Shown here in pieces: positions 2,474 through 25,997 of a DNA stretch of 64,000 bases. The DNA comes from a virus. Position numbers and translations under genes: made by a program. The DNA lies in the IMG/VR virus record IMGVR_UViG_3300025684_000010; one strand, given 5' to 3'. The notes below the pieces were generated by a model. It ran no database searches. It was given only the letters and a program-made list of their open reading frames with translations, and had not been told where the DNA came from. Numbering within the stretch: position 1 is the stretch's first letter; each line of letters begins with the position of its first letter.

Positions 2474-4453
2474 TTAAAATTCCAGTACAAATTTAAATTC
2501 TTCTCTTGAGAGGTCGGTTCTTGCTAATGGGAAGAAGTCCTCCATGAAGTACACTTCGCCTGTTCTCTGTTTGTAATCCGAATAGATAACATTATCTGCT
2601 ATAGGATTATTTATTGTTATTCTCTGGCCAGTATTTGAGGTAATTGCCAGATTTGGATCAAATGATGTATCTCCATTACCAACCAGGGCATTATTTCTAT
2701 ATGGTCCTACGTATTCTGCTAAAAATACTGTATTTGAAGTTTCATCAATCTCGTGTATTTGAGCTTGGAATACAATATCGTTATTTACATTAACTTGCGT
2801 GATTGTACTATTTGCGTTTAATCTTCCATAATCATCTGTTATAATCGCAATTCTATTATCGAAGACATCAGGTTCAGTTGCGGTATTTGCTTGTCCGCTT
2901 CTCCATGTTGCTATACCTGTCATATCTTTAAATGTTGGACTTCTCACAATACCAATACAGCCGTATGTATTCTTATCACCAATTTTTGTATTGTCTTCTG
3001 CAGTAATAAATCCATACATTGAAAAATGTTTACATCTAAATTCATCTAATAAATTATAACCATGGCCACCTTTCGGTTCAATGATAGGTTGAATGGTTGC
3101 TCTTACATCTGCTGATTCAGTACCACCTGGGTTGAAATCAATAAGAGGATCCACAACTTCCGCAATAGCGTTATTATATCCTGTGCCTTTATTTAAAAGA
3201 ATAATTTTATTAATACCACCATTATCAATTTCAGGTACTGCTACCGCCCCATCTCCATCACCGCTTATTTTAACGCGCGGGAAGATTTTAATATTTGCAT
3301 TAATCGTTGCTGTTGATACCATGAAGTCTGTTAAACCTTTCCATGTACCACCTGACACGTATCCGCCAAAACCAGTACCATCAAGATCTGTTGTTAATAA
3401 TGCATCTGATTTCAATTGAAATGTATCTGCATTCACAACTTGTACATAAAAAGTAGTTGCGGCAAGTGTGTCTATGTCTGCTTCATTTACAATTAATTCT
3501 GACATACCAACAACGTTTCTAAATGTAATTGGTTGACCATTCACTAAGTTATGAGATGTTGATGTAATTACGACAGGAGATGCTTGAGTTGCATTCTCTA
3601 CATTACCACGCCTTGGATTTGATAATTCTTCGCCAACGGTAATTTCCGCTAGGCCATTGCCTTGAATCAGTTTATAAGCTTTGATTTCAAATAGATTCGT
3701 AACGCTTGAACTTGGGTTTGTAGCATAGAAGAATTGACCTGTATAGTAATTTTCTGTTGCTTGCCAATCTTGCTCCTTTGGATCAATTTCTAATTTAACA
3801 TTACCGTGAGAACTGGGTCCACCAACTCTGCCAGGAATTGACTTTATAAGGCCGTTCTTTTCTTCATATCCATTATTGACAATAGCATTAGTAACTTGAA
3901 TCTCAGATATACCACCGCCGTAAACCTCCGCTGGATTAACAGTTGCAGTAGGATCAATTGGAATATAACCTAAAGCATTATAGGCCTCGAATTGTAATGT
4001 AGTGAGACGATACATATACTTCCATACATAACCGTCGGCAGTTTCATAAATTTGATTTACGTTGGCTGCATCAAAAGTAGGTGGTGCTTGTGAACCAACA
4101 TCTTCGTTATTATTAAGGCACTTATAAATTCTGTAATCATCAGTGTCGTTATCGTTAGGTCCGACTACTGCATAAAAGTTTAAACCATCAAGATCTACTT
4201 TATCATCGTATTCTGCATACACAACACCTCGTTGCCAAGGGTAATACTTTATCATAAAGTTAATATCTTGATTGCGTATCTTTTTAGCAAATAATGTTTT
4301 TTCTAGAAACTCATTTTGAGAAGTAGCAGAATCAATTGGCTCTATACCGCCAATGCTAGAAACAAACATATAATAGTCATCGTTAGCCTTTGCGTCAGCT
4401 ATGAATAACTTATTAATGTCTTGGTTAAAATTGTTTGTTAAAATTTCAGGCAT
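2474..4453 (-). CDS. gp8: baseplate wedge protein gp8-like, with inserted FCCH-like beta domain
   Basis: Motifs YPWQRGVVYAEYDD, YRIYKCLNNN, TADGYVWKYMY; position in the wedge cluster. Confidence 0.8.
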   Translation of the reverse strand: MPEILTNNFNQDINKLFIADAKANDDYYMFVSSIGGIEPIDSATSQNEFLEKTLFAKKIRNQDINFMIKYYPWQRGVVYAEYDDKVDLDGLNFYAVVGPNDNDTDDYRIYKCLNNNEDVGSQAPPTFDAANVNQIYETADGYVWKYMYRLTTLQFEAYNALGYIPIDPTATVNPAEVYGGGISEIQVTNAIVNNGYEEKNGLIKSIPGRVGGPSSHGNVKLEIDPKEQDWQATENYYTGQFFYATNPSSSVTNLFEIKAYKLIQGNGLAEITVGEELSNPRRGNVENATQASPVVITSTSHNLVNGQPITFRNVVGMSELIVNEADIDTLAATTFYVQVVNADTFQLKSDALLTTDLDGTGFGGYVSGGTWKGLTDFMVSTATINANIKIFPRVKISGDGDGAVAVPEIDNGGINKIILLNKGTGYNNAIAEVVDPLIDFNPGGTESADVRATIQPIIEPKGGHGYNLLDEFRCKHFSMYGFITAEDNTKIGDKNTYGCIGIVRSPTFKDMTGIATWRSGQANTATEPDVFDNRIAIITDDYGRLNANSTITQVNVNNDIVFQAQIHEIDETSNTVFLAEYVGPYRNNALVGNGDTSFDPNLAITSNTGQRITINNPIADNVIYSDYKQRTGEVYFMEDFFPLARTDLSREEFKFVLEF

Positions 4454-4497: not shown

Positions 4498-7140
4498 CTA
4501 ACCTCTTCTTCTTATTCTTGGCCTTGGATACACCAGTCCACTTGTAGGTCTTGCTTTTGCATTTACTTTTGGAAAACTCGCACCAGATTCTGGTCTTTGA
4601 TTCTTCCACATTAATATTTTATTTGGGGCGCCTTGTAAACTTTCAAAGTCAGTACTACTATCAGTTCCAGTATCGTACATTTCACCAGTTGTTGCGTTTG
4701 CTTCAATCCAAGCATTTGCATCAGCTTGAGTTAACCCTGGATTGCTTTCTGCAAGTAATGCAATAACTCCAGCTACTTGTGGCGCCGCCATACTTGTTCC
4801 GCTAATCTTACTGAGATAATACGAACCGTTTCTAGGATCTTGTACACCACCAAAACTACCTGTTAAAGTTGAACTCACAATACCGGCACCAGCCGCAAAA
4901 ATATCAACTGCATTACCACAAACTGAGCTCCCTCTTTTTTTGTCATTTTTTTCAATATTGAGGCAGCCAACATTTAAAGTGGCCGCTTCAAGACCGATGG
5001 TTGAGGACCTATGAGTTGGTTTGGACAAGGCGCTCGTATTTGAGCCGCTTCTGAAATACATGTAATTTTCATAATCTTGATCACCAGACTTGACAGTTTT
5101 TTGATATGAATTTCCTGCCGAAGTAACTATAATAATACCATCGGCAATTGCATCAGCAATATCTGCTGCCCAAGAAATCCCTGAGGATGGAAATTTCCAA
5201 TTACCATCTGCTGGTACATTTATACCTCTTGCTTCTAATTCAGCACTATTTAAATCACTACCCTCATCACCGTACTTATCAAAGGTTACTCCTCTATATT
5301 TAAATTGTCCAATTCCATCATAACCAGAGTAACCATTAGAGGGCCCTGAGATGAAAACGTCTTTACTGACAGTAAACCCATAACTGTGATTACTTATTGT
5401 AGGATTTCTTCTACCAGTTTCTGAGTTAATTGGTTTTGTATTATGCCATTCGCGAATATAATCCCACATAGTTCCAGACTGTAATCCACTGTAACCATGA
5501 TTCGTAGTGCCACTTAAGGGAGCTTCTATACTGTAAATATTTGCTTCTCTTGCCCAACCTAAAGTATTTCCTGCTACAGTCCCAGCAACATGAACACCAT
5601 GATTAGTATCAGTCTGATTACCCATTGTGCCATAATCATAAGTTGCGTTTGGGCCTAATCCTAATTGATTCGCGAGCGAGAACCAATTAAACGGCTGTAC
5701 TCTACTTCCGCCAGTTCCATCAGCATTAACGGCAAACTCTGGGTGGCCTTGAGCAGTTGTTGTAATATGCCCATCAACAATTAATACATCAACATTTTTT
5801 CCTGAAGCGGTAATTGCGAGTGGGTTTGTCGCTACAAAAGAATCTCCATCAGAACCCCAATTTTTTCCTGTAGTAACATAACCTGATGCGCCTGCTTGTG
5901 TAGGATCGCCTGAATCACCATCTTGGAATATATTTCGTATTGTTGATAATGAAGGTTTACTAATTACTGGTTTAATGTGTGTGTTATGGAATGCATAACC
6001 TAATGGATTGTTTGATTGTATACCAGCTTCGGTACGCATATCATCTGTCCATTCTGGAGAAAGACTTCCACCATCCCATAAAGCTGTATATTCAAACATA
6101 CAGAAATTCAATAAGTATAAGTATTCTTTGGCTGCTACTTCAAAAGCATCTGAATCTGTTTTCCAGGCATTTGAAGGCGTGTTATAACCTGACGGATCCC
6201 ATTTTCCAGCATCATATGCTTCTTCCATCGCAGCATATAAATCACCTGAAGCCCAATCACTTGCTAAGTATGCATACAGTTTTATATCGTCTGCTGGTAA
6301 TCCATGCATATGAAGTGTATGCATTATATGTTCAATAACTTCCCCTGCGTCTAAATCTCCATCACCTTGAGTACCAGATGAATTCAAATACCAAACCATA
6401 TCGTTAGCAACGTGTGTATCAAATAAGTTTGTTAGGTTCCAACTAATAATTCCTGAGTCAGTTAAGAAGTTTGGACTATAATCACCCCCGCCACCTCTTG
6501 CTACTCGTTGTAGTGTTGGTTTCCCTTCGTGCCAGGTACCAGATAAACCTTTTAGATTTCGTATAAGATTCCTTTGGAGTGTATCATTGATTTGTGACTG
6601 GTACTGATTTGGTATTAAAAACAATTCATACATTCGAGCTATTTTTTCTATCCACGCGTCAGGCACAGCACTTTGACCACCTACAGCACCAGCCGCCATA
6701 ATTCTTGTACCATTAACAGTAACTTCACGTTTGAAGAAATCACTACCATCGCCAGTCACATCTGCAATTGAGCCACTATAAAGATCTGTGCTAGGAATAT
6801 CATCGCCAACCGTATGCCTATATAAACCCCAATTTTTGTCTGTTACGGAAATCGAGTCCCCATTTCTTTTAAATGGCCCAGTGTCAGAATACCCATTTAA
6901 TTCACATTGTAGAAGATCAAGGAATGCTTTTGATTCTACACCCAATACTCGAGGATCCTTTTCTAATTCAATCACCTCTTCAGGTGTTAACATATAATGA
7001 GTATTACGACTTATTGGTCTTCTTAATTCTACATTAACTGCTCTATCAGGAATATAAAGATCGCCACCAGGCGTTTCCATATCATTATAGAAATCGTCTA
7101 GGTCTTCCTTATTGTGAAGAGTGATCACATATTCTTGCAT
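4498..7140 (-). CDS. subtilisin-like (S8) serine protease with ~300-aa inserted domain
   Basis: Catalytic motifs VLIVDG (Asp), HGVHVAGTVAG (His), SAGNS (oxyanion Asn), GTSMAAPQVAG (Ser); propeptide-like N-terminus. Confidence 0.9.
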   Translation of the reverse strand: MQEYVITLHNKEDLDDFYNDMETPGGDLYIPDRAVNVELRRPISRNTHYMLTPEEVIELEKDPRVLGVESKAFLDLLQCELNGYSDTGPFKRNGDSISVTDKNWGLYRHTVGDDIPSTDLYSGSIADVTGDGSDFFKREVTVNGTRIMAAGAVGGQSAVPDAWIEKIARMYELFLIPNQYQSQINDTLQRNLIRNLKGLSGTWHEGKPTLQRVARGGGGDYSPNFLTDSGIISWNLTNLFDTHVANDMVWYLNSSGTQGDGDLDAGEVIEHIMHTLHMHGLPADDIKLYAYLASDWASGDLYAAMEEAYDAGKWDPSGYNTPSNAWKTDSDAFEVAAKEYLYLLNFCMFEYTALWDGGSLSPEWTDDMRTEAGIQSNNPLGYAFHNTHIKPVISKPSLSTIRNIFQDGDSGDPTQAGASGYVTTGKNWGSDGDSFVATNPLAITASGKNVDVLIVDGHITTTAQGHPEFAVNADGTGGSRVQPFNWFSLANQLGLGPNATYDYGTMGNQTDTNHGVHVAGTVAGNTLGWAREANIYSIEAPLSGTTNHGYSGLQSGTMWDYIREWHNTKPINSETGRRNPTISNHSYGFTVSKDVFISGPSNGYSGYDGIGQFKYRGVTFDKYGDEGSDLNSAELEARGINVPADGNWKFPSSGISWAADIADAIADGIIIVTSAGNSYQKTVKSGDQDYENYMYFRSGSNTSALSKPTHRSSTIGLEAATLNVGCLNIEKNDKKRGSSVCGNAVDIFAAGAGIVSSTLTGSFGGVQDPRNGSYYLSKISGTSMAAPQVAGVIALLAESNPGLTQADANAWIEANATTGEMYDTGTDSSTDFESLQGAPNKILMWKNQRPESGASFPKVNAKARPTSGLVYPRPRIRRRG

Positions 7141-19904: not shown

Positions 19905-20285
19905 CTAAACTGTTTTAACATAGTATATAATGTTTTCGTCAATTGTTTCATCTTTGGTCCAATCAAGAACATCTTCTCCGATTCTACCAGACTGTGCTTG
20001 GTACTTATCAACCATGTAGTCGTTAAAAGTTTGAGTATTCATTGGCCATTCGTAATATGGATCTATGATATTGTTTGCCATGTACACTAACCAAATATAA
20101 TCTACAGAGCCATAATAATCCAAGGCAATATCTTCTGCCCTCTCGCTTTCTTTAACTGTATAAGAATAATAAAGATAGGGGTTATTTGCGACTGCTCTTG
20201 CGAACGAAGGTCTTCGAGATATATCTCTAACCTTTCTACCTTGGTAATCTATAACCGGAAAATGTTCAAAGTATTTAGTTGCCAT
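19905..20285 (-). CDS. gp53: baseplate wedge gp53 N-terminal half (LysM-like)
   Basis: YFEHFP; YTVKESERAEDIALDYYGSVDYIWLVYMANNIIDPYYEWP. Confidence 0.85.
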   Translation of the reverse strand: MATKYFEHFPVIDYQGRKVRDISRRPSFARAVANNPYLYYSYTVKESERAEDIALDYYGSVDYIWLVYMANNIIDPYYEWPMNTQTFNDYMVDKYQAQSGRIGEDVLDWTKDETIDENIIYYVKTV

Positions 20286-21277
20286 TATTTTCCATCTCCG
20301 TCTTTAGGCTCTGCATAATCTTCAGCCGTTTGTATTTCGAGTTCCTTAAAGCTCATAGAAAGTTTAACACCCTGAGGTACACCACCTTCAGCAATAATAA
20401 TTTCACCACTTGCTCCATAGTCAATAGTTATATTATCGCACATGCATGGTTTAAATCTAAGGAAATGCGATTCATCAATACCTAATAGATTAATACTAAC
20501 AACCGCAGGATATGTTAAAAAGGCTCGAGCTAATGTGTTACCTGATAGAGATCCTTCGACCCCCGCCACACCATCTTTGCTGGCACCAGTTACAGATTGT
20601 ACGGTTGGTAATATGTTTCTTTTTATTGATCTTATGATTTTTTTAATAGCTTCTGCTTCTGCTTTACTTTCAGGATATAGTGTCCAATCAAACGAGAAGG
20701 CTCTTAGCTGAACTCCTTCGAAAGAAAGCGTTGATTGAGGGTTAATTGCAGTTCCTCTCGAAGCACCTAATGCTTTACCTAATCCTGATGAAAAACTATT
20801 TATAGCATTAGCACCCATGAACGACGCTATCCTAGAAGCTTGACCTGCTACCTTTTCCTGGCCTGGAGTCTTTGCTTTATCTCCAAACACTGTGTCAATT
20901 GCACCTTTCATACCAGCTTCACCCAAAGCCATCAGTTCTGAACCAATGTCACTAAAGTTGCCTTCAAACGCAGGAGCCAACGTATCAGCAATAAACGATT
21001 CTAAGAAAGATCTTTCAAAGCCATTTATATTAAGACCAGTTGCATCTGTTAATGTACTAGGCATTGGAAGTTCAACAGCCAGTAGACCAGTTTCTGTAGC
21101 ACTTGTAAAGTCACTCCTTCTACCTGTCTTATTCGCGCCTACGCCTAGTGTTAAGTCTGAATAATCATACTTCTTGAATATTAATTGAATGCCGTGCGGG
21201 AATCCACTCGCAGGAAAGAAGAGTCGTTTAGTATCCCCACGATTCCCTTCTCTTAATGTTTGGTCTGGTCTTGCCAT
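20285..21277 (-). CDS. gp48: baseplate tail-tube cap gp48-like
   Basis: ELPMP, NPQSTLSFEGVQLRAFSFDWTLYPES, YP...FKE. Confidence 0.75.
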   Translation of the reverse strand: MARPDQTLREGNRGDTKRLFFPASGFPHGIQLIFKKYDYSDLTLGVGANKTGRRSDFTSATETGLLAVELPMPSTLTDATGLNINGFERSFLESFIADTLAPAFEGNFSDIGSELMALGEAGMKGAIDTVFGDKAKTPGQEKVAGQASRIASFMGANAINSFSSGLGKALGASRGTAINPQSTLSFEGVQLRAFSFDWTLYPESKAEAEAIKKIIRSIKRNILPTVQSVTGASKDGVAGVEGSLSGNTLARAFLTYPAVVSINLLGIDESHFLRFKPCMCDNITIDYGASGEIIIAEGGVPQGVKLSMSFKELEIQTAEDYAEPKDGDGK

Positions 21278-21366: not shown

Positions 21367-21828
21367 ATGGCATATAAGGGTAAATTTAGACCAAAAAATC
21401 CGACCAAGTATAAGGGTGACCCTACAAAAATTATTTATAGGTCTTTGTGGGAGTTCAAGGTATTTAAATGGATGGATTCTCACCCAGATGTAATATGGTG
21501 GCAATCTGAAGAAGTGATTGTTCCATATAGATCGCCGATTGACGGAAAGATACATAGGTATTACCCGGATGTGGTTGTACATAAAAGAGACGGTACAGGG
21601 CAACCTCAAACAATTATGATTGAGATTAAACCAAGCAGTCAATGTAGACCTCCTGATATTAAAAATAAGAACGCGACAAAGACAGGTAGAATATCGAGAA
21701 GATATTTAAATGAAGTTAAGACATGGGGTGTTAACGAAGCAAAATGGAAAGCAGCAAAGAACTTTTGCGCTGACCGCGGATGGCAGTGGACAATAATGAC
21801 AGAAAAACATATACCAGGAGCACGTTAA
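21367..21828 (+). CDS. gp4: head completion nuclease gp4 (TnsA-like)
   Basis: MAYKGKFRPKNPTKYKGDPTKIIYRSLWE; YYPD; IEIKP. Confidence 0.93.
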   Translation: MAYKGKFRPKNPTKYKGDPTKIIYRSLWEFKVFKWMDSHPDVIWWQSEEVIVPYRSPIDGKIHRYYPDVVVHKRDGTGQPQTIMIEIKPSSQCRPPDIKNKNATKTGRISRRYLNEVKTWGVNEAKWKAAKNFCADRGWQWTIMTEKHIPGAR

Positions 21829-22446
21829 GTGGCAAGCTTATTCTCAGATATTCTAGTAAAAGGAATAACATCAGGACAAGTGCCTGCTAGAACAAAAGGT
21901 GCGAGGGAATGGTACCGTAAACAAGCAACGTTAGCAGTAGGTAAAAGAATTACAGAAGATGAGATTGTAGGTAATACTGATAAAGGAAGAAACAAAGCGC
22001 AGTTACGTGGTGATTCTGTTTATGGATCAATGTACTTTTTTAGGTATGATCCTAAACATAAATCTACTTTACCATACTATGACGCCTTCCCTTGCATATT
22101 TCCAATAAATAAGGTAAAGGGTGGTATACTTGGATTGAATATGCATTACTTACCACCAAAGATGAGAGCCCAATTAATGGATGCTCTTTATACAACTGTA
22201 TCAGACAAAAGCTATGATGAGAATACAACATTGAATATAAACTATAAGATTTTAAATAGTGCTGCCAATATGAAGTTCTTTGCACCTTGTGTTAAAATGT
22301 ATTTGGCAAAACACGTAAGATCTAAGTTTGTTAAAATCAATTCATCGGAATGGGACACTGCGTTATTTTTACCAGTACAAAGTTTCCAGAAAGCCGGGTC
22401 AGCGAAAGTTTGGGCAGACTCAAGAAAGCTCATAGCGGGGAATTAA
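21829..22446 (+). CDS. gp2: DNA end protector protein gp2
   Basis: MYFFRYDPKHKSTLPYYDAFP..GLNMHYLPP. Confidence 0.92.
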   Translation: MASLFSDILVKGITSGQVPARTKGAREWYRKQATLAVGKRITEDEIVGNTDKGRNKAQLRGDSVYGSMYFFRYDPKHKSTLPYYDAFPCIFPINKVKGGILGLNMHYLPPKMRAQLMDALYTTVSDKSYDENTTLNINYKILNSAANMKFFAPCVKMYLAKHVRSKFVKINSSEWDTALFLPVQSFQKAGSAKVWADSRKLIAGN

Positions 22447-22449
22447 TAA

Positions 22450-23229
22450 ATGCCATTTAACATTAGTGAATTTAAAAGTCAGTTCGATAGATATGGCGGG
22501 CCAGCTATGGCTAATCTATTTTCTGTTCAAGTAACACTACCACCTCAGCTTCGCGCAAGAATACAACCAGCAGAAAATAATGCTTTTAACATGAGTCATA
22601 CGTTTACTTTCTTTTGTCATAAGATGGATATACCTGCGATTGGTATTAATACATCTGAAGTATCATATACGGGACAAATGAAAAAGAAACATCCAACAAG
22701 AGTTCAGAATCCAGGCCCTATGAGTGCATCTTTCTTTGTTGATTCTGATCATCATGTTTTAAGGTTCTTTCACGCTTGGGCTCAAAACATTATAAATTAT
22801 AATAAAGGCGATGGTGCATTTGCCGAAGTAGATGGTAAACTTCCACATGAAGTTGGATTTAAGGAAGACTTTGCATGTGATATGATTATTAAACATTATT
22901 CAACAGATTCTTATCCTGACGTATATTACGAAACTAAACTACAAGGAGTATGGCCAGTATCTATTGGAGCATTGAGTTTAGATTGGTCAACAAAAACAGC
23001 TCTTTCATTAGATGTTCAGTTTACAGTTACTGATATGTCATTCGATGGAGCAAAGTCAGGAAAAACGAATAGCAGATTATCGAGAGCAAGCGGCTTGTTA
23101 GATATCCTTGGAGATATCGCAGGCTTCGGAGACGCGGTAAGAGGAACATTAAAAAGCGGGAAACCGACAAGCATACAGGATGCTATCAATAAATTAGATA
23201 GACTTGGTAATGCATTTGGAAAAATATAA
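22450..23229 (+). CDS. gp54: tail-tube initiator gp54 / gp19-like tube-fold protein
   Basis: N-terminal FKSQF..GG.A..N.F; WPVSIGALSLDW; tube-fold pattern. Confidence 0.65.
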   Translation: MPFNISEFKSQFDRYGGPAMANLFSVQVTLPPQLRARIQPAENNAFNMSHTFTFFCHKMDIPAIGINTSEVSYTGQMKKKHPTRVQNPGPMSASFFVDSDHHVLRFFHAWAQNIINYNKGDGAFAEVDGKLPHEVGFKEDFACDMIIKHYSTDSYPDVYYETKLQGVWPVSIGALSLDWSTKTALSLDVQFTVTDMSFDGAKSGKTNSRLSRASGLLDILGDIAGFGDAVRGTLKSGKPTSIQDAINKLDRLGNAFGKI

Positions 23230-23260: not shown

Positions 23261-23962
23261 ATGGCACTACCAAAAATTAACTTACCAATCTCGGAATTGA
23301 TTTTACCGAGTACAGGTGAAAAAACTAAATATAGACCTTTTTCTGTAGCGGAAGAAAAGATCTTGTTAGTTGCACAAGAAGCGAATGACGCAGAACAAGA
23401 AGTATTAGCAATGAAACAAATCATTTCTAATTGCTTAATTGAAAAAGATGTTGAAGAACTTGCATTATTTGATTTTGAATATGTTTATTTAACATTAAGA
23501 GCACGTTCAGTCGATAACTTGGCTAAGTTCAAAATTAAAGATCCTGACACGGATGAAGAAATTGAATTAGAACTTGATATGAGAGAGATTGATATTGCTC
23601 GAGATGAAGCTCATACAAATGAAATTAAAGTAAACGATGAGTATACTCTGTTTCTAAAGTATCCATCTATTAATGAATTCATAAAGATTGTTGGAATGAA
23701 TAATGACGATCCTTTAGTTAACTATTTTGTAATGATTTCTTGTTTAGATACATTAGCTTCAGAAGATGAAGTACATAGTTTTAAAGATTATAGTGATGAA
23801 GATATTGAGTCCTTTATGGATAGTCTCGGTGGGGATGTTATTCGAGGAATTACTTTATTCTTTGAAACAATGCCGAAGATACGAAAAGAGTTACCATATA
23901 CGAATAGTGAAGGTAAAGAACAAACGTTTGTCGTGGAGGGCACCCGTAGTTTTTTTATCTAA
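23261..23962 (+). CDS. gp26: baseplate hub assembly chaperone gp26
   Basis: MALPKI..LPSTG..YRPFSVAEEKILL; LRARSV; FFETMPK. Confidence 0.9.
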   Translation: MALPKINLPISELILPSTGEKTKYRPFSVAEEKILLVAQEANDAEQEVLAMKQIISNCLIEKDVEELALFDFEYVYLTLRARSVDNLAKFKIKDPDTDEEIELELDMREIDIARDEAHTNEIKVNDEYTLFLKYPSINEFIKIVGMNNDDPLVNYFVMISCLDTLASEDEVHSFKDYSDEDIESFMDSLGGDVIRGITLFFETMPKIRKELPYTNSEGKEQTFVVEGTRSFFI

Positions 23963-23986
23963 GCCTTAGCCATATAACGTTAGGGC
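23950..23986 (+). promoter_or_regulatory. candidate -1 ribosomal frameshift signal (T TTT TTT + 6 nt + 8-bp hairpin)
   Basis: T7 run at 23950-23956 in X XXY YYZ register of gp26; stem GCCTTAGC/GTTAGGGC at 23963-23970/23979-23986. Confidence 0.6.
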
Positions 23987-23997
23987 ATTACTATCAA

Positions 23998-24135
23998 ATG
24001 ATTTTCTCCATGGCACAACACCACAAATGGTCTGTGTCCGAAATTGAGGCTATGATGCCTTTTGAAAGAGATCTTTATTTTAGTATGCTAGTACAATGGA
24101 TAGAAGAACAGAATGAACAACGAAAACAAGGTTAA
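23998..24135 (+). CDS. gp51: gp51-like baseplate hub assembly protein (reading frame open from 23950)
   Basis: Not in the ORF track. MIFSMAQHHKWSVSEIEAMMPFERDLYFSMLVQWIEEQNEQRKQG matches the gp51-like QHHKxSxxEIExMxPxER pattern. Confidence 0.75.
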   Translation: MIFSMAQHHKWSVSEIEAMMPFERDLYFSMLVQWIEEQNEQRKQG

Positions 24136-24140
24136 TATAA

Positions 24141-25997
24141 ATGGCTAAAACAACACCAAAGAGCAAAGAGCTAAGTCCAGAGACTCAGAGTATAGTCAAT
24201 CGTCTTATCCGTGAAGGAGAGCTTGTAAGGAACGACGGCAAGCATTCGATTAAAGAAATTAGAATTGACCTTGGAAAATTTACCGATGCTTTTGCTGCAA
24301 TTAAAATAAGCTCTGAACAAACAGCTAAAGTCTTAACGGATTCTTGGGAAGGAAACGAAGCACTACTCAAAAATATTGATGAAAGCTTAGTTGGTTTAAA
24401 TGACACAGAAAAAGATGCTGAACTGGCAAGAAGAGCTCAGGCTAAAAAGGATTCCATCGCAAATAAAGAAAAAAGTGCTGAAAGTATGTTTGGTGCCAAA
24501 GTATTAGAGAAAAACTTAATGCTAGGATTCAAAGGTTTAAAAGATGGATTCATGGCAATAAAGAAAGATCCGTTTGGTTCGTTATTAAACATTGGCAAGT
24601 GGGCAATTATAATACCAGTATTAGCCGGAGCGATTAAAGGATTGCTTGATAAGATCTTTGGTGAAGGCGAAATGGCTGCATTCTATAAAGGTTTTAGCGA
24701 GAGTGCATTTGGTAAATTTATTAAAAACAACCCGTGGACATCTATTGGTATTGGCATAGCGGCAATGGCCGCGGTTAACTGGGCCAAAATGTATCTAGCT
24801 ATGATGGCCGCAGCGACAATGTTGGGCACAAGAGGTAAAGGTGGTCTTACTGCATTAGGAGGCAAGGCTAGTACGGCTGCAGCTCCAGCTAAAAATGTTG
24901 TATCCAAGCTTGGTAAATTCGCGCTTGGTACAATAAGAGGTAATGCAATTGTTGCTGGTGTTACTACTGCGGGTTTATTAATTTATAATAATATGGACGA
25001 CGGCGAAAAAACAAACCTTGATACAGAGATGGCGAGAATTGATGCAGAATACTCAGGCAAAGAATTAGAAGCCAAAGACAAAATCTTAACTAATTTTGAA
25101 AATGAAAGATCAGGTATAGCTGATATCTTTCTAGGAACGGCTGGCGGCGCTGCTGGCGGCGCTGCTACTGGCCTCCTTTTTGGTGGAGTTGGAGCTATTC
25201 CTGGAGCAGTTATGGGTGGCTTAACAGGATTCTTTACTAGTGTTTCACAAGTTGGGATAGAATACATTGATGATTTGAACAACGACATTGATGAAATTCC
25301 AAACGAAATGGAAAGGTTGTTAAAGGAAGAACAAAGGAAGAACAAGTTATCATTGATGTACGGAAGAACTGAGAAGGCAGCAGAGTTAACTCGAAAGACA
25401 ACAGAAGGTATGCAAACTTTTGTTAATGACTTACGAGCCAATATGACTACTGATGCAATATTCGGCGATGCAAATATTGCAGCTCTCGAAGCCGCAAGTA
25501 AGAGTGAGATAACAGAGAAAGGACGAAGAAAAAATAAAACTGAATATGTTATGTTCGGCGGAGAACTAGTTAGGTTATCAGAAATTAATGAACGTCTCGA
25601 AGAAGCTAAAAAAACAAGAGTAAATAGAGAAAGACAATTAAAAGCATCTGAAAGATTACTTGAATTGAGATTAGGTGAAGTAGAATCTGTTGAAACTTCA
25701 GTTGATAGCGCGAATAATTTAAATGCTCAAATTGATGAAGTAGCGGCAAAGGCAGCTGCAGCTAAACCAAATATTCTTCCTGATGTTGAAGAAAGAGATA
25801 AAAAACAAACAGTTGCAGCTGGTGGATTTGCTTTAAACGTAACGAATAATTATATTTCTAAAGGCGGAGATACAATGGTACAGAATAAGTCTGATAATCG
25901 AGTATCTTCACAGAATAGTACTAATGCTGTTGTCTTTGGTGGTGGCGGTGGAAGATTTGGCGGTGGAACTGGTTTACCGACTGGCGCCATGGCATAA
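24141..25997 (+). CDS. tape-measure / gp29-like tail protein
   Basis: Long helical Ala/Gly/Lys-rich protein with hydrophobic segments and a glycine zipper; follows gp26/gp51. Confidence 0.65.
   Translation: MAKTTPKSKELSPETQSIVNRLIREGELVRNDGKHSIKEIRIDLGKFTDAFAAIKISSEQTAKVLTDSWEGNEALLKNIDESLVGLNDTEKDAELARRAQAKKDSIANKEKSAESMFGAKVLEKNLMLGFKGLKDGFMAIKKDPFGSLLNIGKWAIIIPVLAGAIKGLLDKIFGEGEMAAFYKGFSESAFGKFIKNNPWTSIGIGIAAMAAVNWAKMYLAMMAAATMLGTRGKGGLTALGGKASTAAAPAKNVVSKLGKFALGTIRGNAIVAGVTTAGLLIYNNMDDGEKTNLDTEMARIDAEYSGKELEAKDKILTNFENERSGIADIFLGTAGGAAGGAATGLLFGGVGAIPGAVMGGLTGFFTSVSQVGIEYIDDLNNDIDEIPNEMERLLKEEQRKNKLSLMYGRTEKAAELTRKTTEGMQTFVNDLRANMTTDAIFGDANIAALEAASKSEITEKGRRKNKTEYVMFGGELVRLSEINERLEEAKKTRVNRERQLKASERLLELRLGEVESVETSVDSANNLNAQIDEVAAKAAAAKPNILPDVEERDKKQTVAAGGFALNVTNNYISKGGDTMVQNKSDNRVSSQNSTNAVVFGGGGGRFGGGTGLPTGAMA

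Follow-up and report, generated by a model that had tools for sequence, protein, structure and literature searches.

The DNA analysed here, a stretch of 64,000 nucleotides (nt) given as one strand and referred to below as the window, comes from virus IMGVR_UViG_3300025684_000010, an uncultured marine T4-like phage, and carries a gene for a gp26-like baseplate-hub and tail assembly chaperone. We propose, with a probability of about 85%, that a programmed -1 ribosomal frameshift at the end of this gene makes a gp26-gp51 long form of 291 amino acids (aa) beside the 233-aa gp26. According to this proposal, a fraction of the ribosomes on the gp26-like gene would slip back one base at U_UUU_UUU (23950-23956), just before the zero-frame stop, and would then read 59 more codons. 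The resulting short and long forms would have residues 1-232 in common and would be the counterparts of T4 gp26 and gp51, two hub assembly chaperones for which T4 proper uses two paralogous genes. The slip would be made by the ribosome and not by RNA polymerase, and it would be stimulated by a downstream hairpin and perhaps also by an upstream GGAGGG element. Both forms would chaperone the assembly of the tape measure and the hub. A gp26-gp51 fusion had already been suggested by an earlier reading of the window (the original prediction). It is now supported by the strict conservation of the slippery site in 58 of 58 homologous junctions, by a coding signature in a frame which often lacks a start codon, and by the collinearity of the fusion with T4 gp51.

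The gp26-like open reading frame (ORF; 23261-23962, plus strand) ends with AGT TTT TTT ATC TAA. The heptamer T_TTT_TTT at 23950-23956 (plus strand), where we place the shift, is in the X_XXY_YYZ phase and is followed one codon later by the zero-frame TAA (23960-23962). Directly 5′ of the heptamer, a TAG (23947-23949) closes the -1 frame, which is then open up to a TAA at 24133-24135 (sense to 24132). The extension thus comprises 61 codons and a stop (23950-24135, plus strand) and would form the gp51-like C-terminal domain of the long form. In conceptual translation, the -1 frame reads FFYLSLSHITLGHYYQ-MIFSMAQHHKW... and, from the heptamer onward, as FFYLSLSHITLGHYYQMIFSMAQHHKW...; the predicted junction peptide is SFFYLSLSHITLGHYYQMIFSMAQHHK, with ...SFFRISMFYNNLENYYR as its counterpart in S-PM2. 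The original prediction had located the heptamer correctly to the base, and both the opening of the -1 frame and the size of the fusion (computed as 230 + 61 = 291 aa) agree with it. Likewise, it had described the first ATG of the -1 frame as poorly equipped for initiation. This ATG (23998-24000) is codon 17 of the read, has only a weak and distant GGG upstream, and opens a 45-aa ORF of the type reported by gene callers (23998-24135, plus strand). It is probably not the main entry into the -1 frame.

Runs of seven T's are strongly depleted in the window: 11 T7/A7 runs were seen versus 54.6 expected from dinucleotide shuffles, so that the conserved in-gene run at 23950 stands out. Such runs occur at 4935, 4946, 12608, 20638, 23950 and other positions.

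For the comparison of homologous junctions, 80 IMG/VR loci were collected with the gp26 protein and combined with annotated records. The extension is carried by 86 loci, which reduce to 58 distinct junctions spanning 24-100% gp26 identity and including cyanophages, a pelagiphage, phiM12, KVP40-like, pf16-like and Emmerichvirinae phages. T_TTT_TTN occupies the zero-frame phase in every one of these junctions (29 TTTTTTT, 24 TTTTTTC and 5 TTTTTTA), and the zero-frame stop always lies 0-2 codons past the heptamer. The codon before the T-run is invariably NNT, although six different codons are used (AGT, AAT, GAT, TCT, GCT and ACT) and the same amino acids elsewhere in these genes take a third-position T in 58% of cases. 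In 11 of the 58 junctions, the window phage included, the -1 frame is closed at the point directly 5′ of the heptamer. The heptamer state is also found in S-PM2, S-RIM32, ACG-2014e, phiM12, HTVC008M and the KVP40-like VH1_2019, as well as in Pseudomonas phage Milchi, VmeM-32 and AS-yj. When aligned across T4-like phages, as the original prediction had suggested, all distinct junctions thus share a T-run which lies next to the stop and keeps the -1 phase; neither a random phase nor a missing slippery run was encountered among them. That all 58 junctions keep the heptamer in phase together with the -1 homology, and that T7 runs are depleted in the window, argues for more than chance.

Homology in the -1 frame begins at the heptamer itself. 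The 59-aa peptide read just past the heptamer matches PHROG 634 (baseplate hub assembly catalyst, gp51) with an E-value of 4.3e-23 from residue 2, which bears out the earlier impression of a gp51-like stretch upstream of the ATG. A tblastn search with the 61-aa read matched 573 phage records, nearly all of them aligned from query residue 1 and overlapping the annotated 3′ end of gp26. These records come from cyanophages, the pelagiphage HTVC008M, and phages of Methylophilales, Sinorhizobium, Rhizobium, Agrobacterium, Ochrobactrum, Vibrio and Pseudomonas. In both searches the onset of homology coincides with the FF of the heptamer.

No such pattern is seen for -1-frame start codons. The first one varies from codon 4 to codon 46 among homologues, and 34 of 57 junctions lack any ATG, GTG or TTG in the first 14 codons. 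The consensus FF..LSH.SL..YY..NF is retained in these start-less junctions and does not differ from that of junctions with an early start. Over their codons 4-14, we counted 1488 synonymous versus 3072 non-synonymous codon-pair differences in the -1 frame, compared with 386/4165 and 467/4057 in the other two frames. Judged from this pattern of substitution, only the -1 frame of the stretch before the start evolves like coding sequence, which argues that the stretch is protein-coding in a frame lacking a start. The same comparison indicates that the extension is under purifying selection. On its own, it is predicted to fold into three helices, with a predicted local distance difference test score (pLDDT) of 80.

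These patterns bear directly on an explanation that dispenses with frameshifting. Translation of the -1 frame could begin solely at its own start codon (ATG 23998 in the window), perhaps through termination-reinitiation, and yield a free gp51-like protein of 45 aa; the T-run would then merely encode a conserved Phe-Phe at the C-terminus of gp26. Such an ORF does exist in the window, about 23 of the 57 junctions have a start in the first 14 codons, and GenBank calls such ORFs gp51. Aeromonas phage TSW001 apparently has a stand-alone small gp51, and the FF is kept in the gp26 proteins of T4 and IME08 without a T-run. However, homology and coding pattern reach upstream of the first start in the 34 start-less junctions, the start shifts in position from one homologue to another, and ATG 23998 is without a good Shine-Dalgarno (SD) sequence. 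A need for Phe-Phe also fits poorly with the invariant T in the third position of the preceding codon and with the five TTTTTTA junctions, which keep the run though their zero frame reads F-L. Furthermore, T4 gp51 carries the extension within a full-length protein. We regard independent initiation as an improbable substitute for the frameshift; an additional free small protein may be made in lineages with an early ATG.

The relation to T4 also supports the frameshift. In T4, gene 26 and gene 51 are divergently oriented neighbours. Both products are listed as hub assembly chaperones, and gp51 is not found in the virion (Leiman et al. 2010, PMC3004832). In the GenBank record of phage Abraxas, gp26 and gp51 are both named 'tape measure protein assembly chaperone'. 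T4 gp51 has been described as 'catalytic, non-structural', its function long remaining obscure. The annotation of T4 gene 26 also includes an internal product in the same frame (26′, 3803-4090 of the T4 locus examined), so that even this gene yields more than one protein.

T4 gp26 (208 aa) and gp51 (249 aa) belong to the same family as the gp26-like protein of the window. Both match PF12322 over the whole profile, in gp51 over residues 1-201. T4 gp51 also bears the extension, matching PHROG 634 over residues 147-246, and covers positions 13-280 of 282 in PHROG 150, whereas T4 gp26 stops at position 235 of this profile. The zero-frame protein of the window matches the whole PF12322 domain (1.5e-47, profile positions 5-218 of 219) and positions 5-232 of 282 in PHROG 150 (1.2e-53). 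When 56 virtual fusions were turned into a hidden Markov model (HMM), T4 gp51 aligned to its positions 23-280 as a single domain without a break at the junction (HMM side sFFrivlshesLenyyktnFalmqhhkyslteienmipfEr), and T4 gp26 aligned up to the junction, where it ends in ...GLKEFFEL. The HMM and a peptide alignment agree in placing the window extension on T4 gp51 residues about 200-247. BLASTP of T4 gp51 against the gp26-like protein of the window or against the extension gave no significant match; profile methods were needed. A MAFFT alignment of T4 gp51 with gp26-like proteins and extension peptides mis-registered the gp26 C-termini. By profile comparison, the gp51-type extension of the window phage is collinear with T4 gp51; T4 gp51 corresponds to the fusion and T4 gp26 to the short form.

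The difference lies in how the pair is encoded. T4 has two separate paralogous genes and no slippery run, whereas the window phage has one gene and the proposed frameshift. PF12322 genes were counted in complete relatives of the window phage and in T4: S-PM2, phiM12, HTVC008M and VH1_2019 have one each, and T4 has two. The link of the pair to the tube gene and the tape measure gene is also broken in T4, where gene 26 adjoins gene 25 and gene 51 precedes genes 27-28-29. A search with T4 gp26 gave only 7 close relatives, and controls were collected one by one. In five of six phages with a separate gene 51 (T4, JSE, Aeromonas phage 25, Abraxas and IME08), gene 26 ends without a T-run; in T4, the end reads GAG TTC TTT GAG. 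One IMG/VR relative has the non-canonical G_TTT_TTT, with gene 25 following in the -1 frame. The Emmerichvirinae phages VmeM-32 and AS-yj have the heptamer and an unannotated extension. In the genomes compared, the heptamer state and a separate gene 51 exclude each other, as expected for alternative routes to the same protein pair. TSW001 seems, from its sequence, to represent a third state beside the frameshift and the two full-length genes: at 3700-3950 of the locus examined, a gp26-like gene without a T-run is followed by a strong GC hairpin and then by a 54-aa gp51-like ORF with its own ATG (MAAMCVEDSPVGFGLSMSEFCDMMPW...).

We now turn to the RNA elements around the slippery site. The hairpin named in the original prediction is present exactly as described: GCCUUAGC pairs with GUUAGGGC at 23963-23986 (plus strand), forming 8 base pairs (bp), two of them G-U, with an 8-nt loop and a 6-nt spacer from the heptamer. 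This hairpin is the minimum-energy fold (-10.9 kcal/mol, z = -2.9), and 2 of 200 shuffled sequences fold as well. Its conservation, in contrast, is confined to the clade of the window phage (9 distinct sequences, 75-100% gp26 identity); in other clades, other structures or none were seen. Within the window clade, 100% of the cells are paired, and the changes consist of one C-G to U-A double change and four changes from G-U to G-C, all synonymous in the -1 frame. The hairpin probably stimulates the shift in the window clade.

Several other clades (e.g. loci L025, L029, L036, L038 and L073) have an 11-bp long-range stem which also starts 6 nt past the heptamer and is absent from the window clade. 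In this stem (alignment columns 13-23 with 62-72), the M/V-L-S-H codons are paired with the A-Q-H-H codons and the synonymous codon choices co-vary, GTG CTG ... CAG CAC in some sequences versus ATG TTG ... CAA CAT in others. S-PM2 has a 13-bp local stem.

Upstream, an SD-like GGAGGG (23935-23940, plus strand) ends 9 nt 5′ of the heptamer and is a possible stimulator of the dnaX type. In Escherichia coli dnaX, a -1 frameshift occurs at A_AAA_AAG with an upstream SD sequence and a downstream hairpin. The window clade resembles this arrangement in its GGAGGG 9 nt upstream, its homopolymeric heptamer and its hairpin 6 nt downstream; the 9-nt distance is that from which an internal SD sequence acts on the dnaX shift. 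There are two differences. The dnaX shift gives a shorter protein by early termination, whereas the T4-like shift would lengthen the product, and the SD-like element here coincides with conserved Glu-Gly codons. An SD-like 4-mer is found at -20 to -5 in 36 of 58 junctions versus 6% of control windows, a signal which is confounded by this coding role of GGAGGG. To assign the element a stimulatory function is speculative. In a longer fold of 111 nt (23930-24040; -28.4 kcal/mol, z = -2.3), GUGGAGGG 5′ of the heptamer pairs with UCUCCAU(GG) at about 24005-24013 and encloses both the slippery site and the hairpin; this fold may be incidental.

The fused protein could also arise if RNA polymerase, and not the ribosome, slipped on the run of six or seven T's. 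With one U added, some messenger RNAs would carry gp26 and the extension in one frame, and the protein would be identical to the frameshift product. This explanation draws on the homopolymer run being the only strictly universal element and on no downstream structure being conserved across the family. Nevertheless, the run is limited to six T's in half of the junctions (TTTTTTC or TTTTTTA), and transcriptional slippage fits poorly with such short runs, since appreciable slippage of bacterial RNA polymerase occurs on runs of about 8-9 or more. Moreover, the constant X_XXY_YYZ phase and the stop within 0-2 codons are needed by ribosomal slippage and not by polymerase slippage, and the window-clade hairpin is located at the canonical 6-nt spacing. 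We rate transcriptional slippage as about as improbable as independent initiation. Homopolymer runs are error-prone in some sequencing chemistries, but a sequencing error in one continuous ORF, or a pseudogenised gp51, was rejected as next to impossible given the breadth of conservation: the same phase and a nearby zero-frame stop recur in 58 distinct junctions from isolates and metagenomes obtained over about 20 years with apparently various methods, and the extension is under purifying selection.

The frameshift reading places the gp26/gp51 pair beside the tail assembly chaperones of other long-tailed phages. Xu, Hendrix and Duda reportedly described in 2004 a conserved -1 frameshift of tail assembly chaperone genes, with gpG/gpGT of lambda and also E/E+E′ of P2 and Mu as examples. 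An AlphaFold2 (AF2) model of the gp26-like protein has a pLDDT of 86 and a predicted template modelling score (pTM) of 0.80. In a structure search against 48,161 representative chains, the top three matches fall on model residues 1-93, with Z-scores in the range called middling by the tool (3fgx, Z 7.6; 2ob9, Z 7.3; 3klu, Z 7.0). They align over 83-84 residues of chains which are 96-119 residues long, and the next match has a Z-score of 4.9. The entry 2ob9 is the HK97 tail assembly chaperone and 3klu is YqbN of Bacillus subtilis, a prophage tail chaperone of the XkdN type. Foldseek also placed 2ob9 in its top row (E 0.32, probability 0.82), a result which is not significant alone. The N-terminal domain of gp26 (residues 1-93) is thus predicted to have a tail assembly chaperone fold. 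By sequence, with E-values up to 10, no tail assembly chaperone family of Pfam was matched: residues 1-95 matched only PF12322, and nothing relevant was found for the extension.

The original prediction had compared the locus with lambda G/GT. This analogy gains from the predicted chaperone fold and from T4, where gp51 is collinear with the fusion and gp26 with the short form. In common with gpG/gpGT, the window phage has a proposed -1 shift late in the first ORF at a heptamer of the X_XXY_YYZ type, predicted short and long forms with a common N-terminus, and a location between a tube-fold gene and a probable tape measure gene. The predicted fold of the N-terminal domain, close to HK97 2ob9 and YqbN 3klu, is a further likeness to the lambda-type chaperones. 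In contrast, the gp26-like protein is about twice the size of gpG, with extra domains in residues 94-233, and falls into no Pfam tail assembly chaperone family by sequence. The extension is short, with 59 codons, and the heptamer of the T4-like junctions is U_UUU_UUN and not G_GGA_AAG.

Several observations weigh against the frameshift. First, no experimental report of a trans-frame product was found for the window phage or its relatives. Second, the conservation of the T-run is partly a protein constraint, since the FF residues are partly kept as amino acids even in T4 gp26, and T-runs of at least six are not rare elsewhere in these genes (38 in 58 AT-rich genes). Third, about 40% of the junctions have a start codon at most 6 codons from the heptamer, and independent initiation could yield a free small protein there; the apparently stand-alone gp51-like protein of TSW001 suggests that the extension may work unfused in some lineages. 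The covariation test in the window clade is low-powered, with 58 of 500 shuffles reaching the observed value, and many junctions fold no better than shuffles. A single RNA structure for the whole family was rejected, as, over all clades, 58% of cells are paired for the long-range 11-bp stem and 53% for the local hairpin. Lastly, the predicted chaperone fold is based on the middling Z-scores mentioned above.

The surroundings of the gp26-like gene are those of a T4-like phage, and profile matches identify a block of T4-like tail and baseplate genes in the window. A gp48-like tube cap gene (20285-21277) lies on the minus strand. It is followed by genes for a gp4-like head completion protein (21367-21828; PHROG 218, 8.9e-57) and a gp2-like DNA end protector (21829-22446). 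The gp4-like protein also matches the Pfam family PF08722 (TnsA-like endonuclease N-terminal domain) at 2.3e-22. Directly 5′ of the gp26-like gene stands a gene with the tail-tube fold of the gp19/gp54 family (22450-23229, plus strand). Its product matches PHROG 45 'tail tube' at 1.9e-36, and its match to PF23849 is below the cut-off of this profile. In phiM12, HTVC008M, Milchi and AS-yj, the gene in this position carries the annotation tail tube or tube initiator.

Directly 3′ of the extension, a 618-aa probable tape measure protein is encoded at 24141-25997 (plus strand) and would be the counterpart of T4 gp29. This assignment is tentative and is based on position, size with Gly/Ala-rich hydrophobic segments, and one feature-based Atlas lead to T4_Tape_measure (score 0.91). 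The sequence is highly divergent, and no match was found by tblastn at 1e-5 among 50,697 phage records. The order of the tube-fold gene, the gp26-like short form, the extension and the probable tape measure gene is as originally described, with the tentative identity of the last, and is the canonical one around lambda G/GT. An equivalent order exists in phiM12, HTVC008M and Milchi and, judged by gene sizes, in the unannotated KVP40-like record. In phiM12 and HTVC008M, tape-measure-like genes are annotated at the corresponding position, one small gene further on. A blastn search of the locus against the same 50,697 records gave zero matches, so that the phage is only distantly related to isolates.

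We found no report of a gp26/gp51 frameshift in full-text literature searches, and all inspected deposited records are without a ribosomal slippage annotation. In ACG-2014e, S-BM3, S-WAM2, VmeM-32 and AS-yj, an unannotated gap of about 180 nt directly after gp26 holds the -1-frame gp51-like extension. The mechanism itself is well known from textbooks, and the novelty lies in the family and lineage and in the explanation offered for the two genes of T4.

A broader history can be sketched, to which we assign slightly less than an even chance. The -1 frameshift may be ancestral in the T4 superfamily, with gp26/gp51 being tape-measure chaperones of the G/GT type, and the T4-proper lineages (Tevenvirinae and the JSE-, Aeromonas 25- and Abraxas-type groups) may have exchanged recoding for gene duplication. 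In this scenario, gp51 would be GT-like, its three-helix extension docking the tube initiator or the hub onto the tape measure complex, and the signal of the window clade would be tripartite as in dnaX (SD, U7 and hairpin).

As a nearly universal rule, a -1 frameshift is conserved in the tail assembly chaperone genes of long-tailed phages, but it was not known from T4, the best-studied myovirus, which made T4 an awkward exception. If the frameshift proposed here is true, the rule extends to T4-like phages, with a duplication as the only departure of T4 itself; making the pair from genes 26 and 51 would explain why T4 seemed to be without a frameshift. The frameshift would also suggest a concrete role for gp51. 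Furthermore, it would account for the hundreds of T4-like genomes which have only a gene 51 'stub' of 40-60 aa or an unannotated gap of about 180 nt, and the annotation of more than 500 deposited genomes would be corrected.

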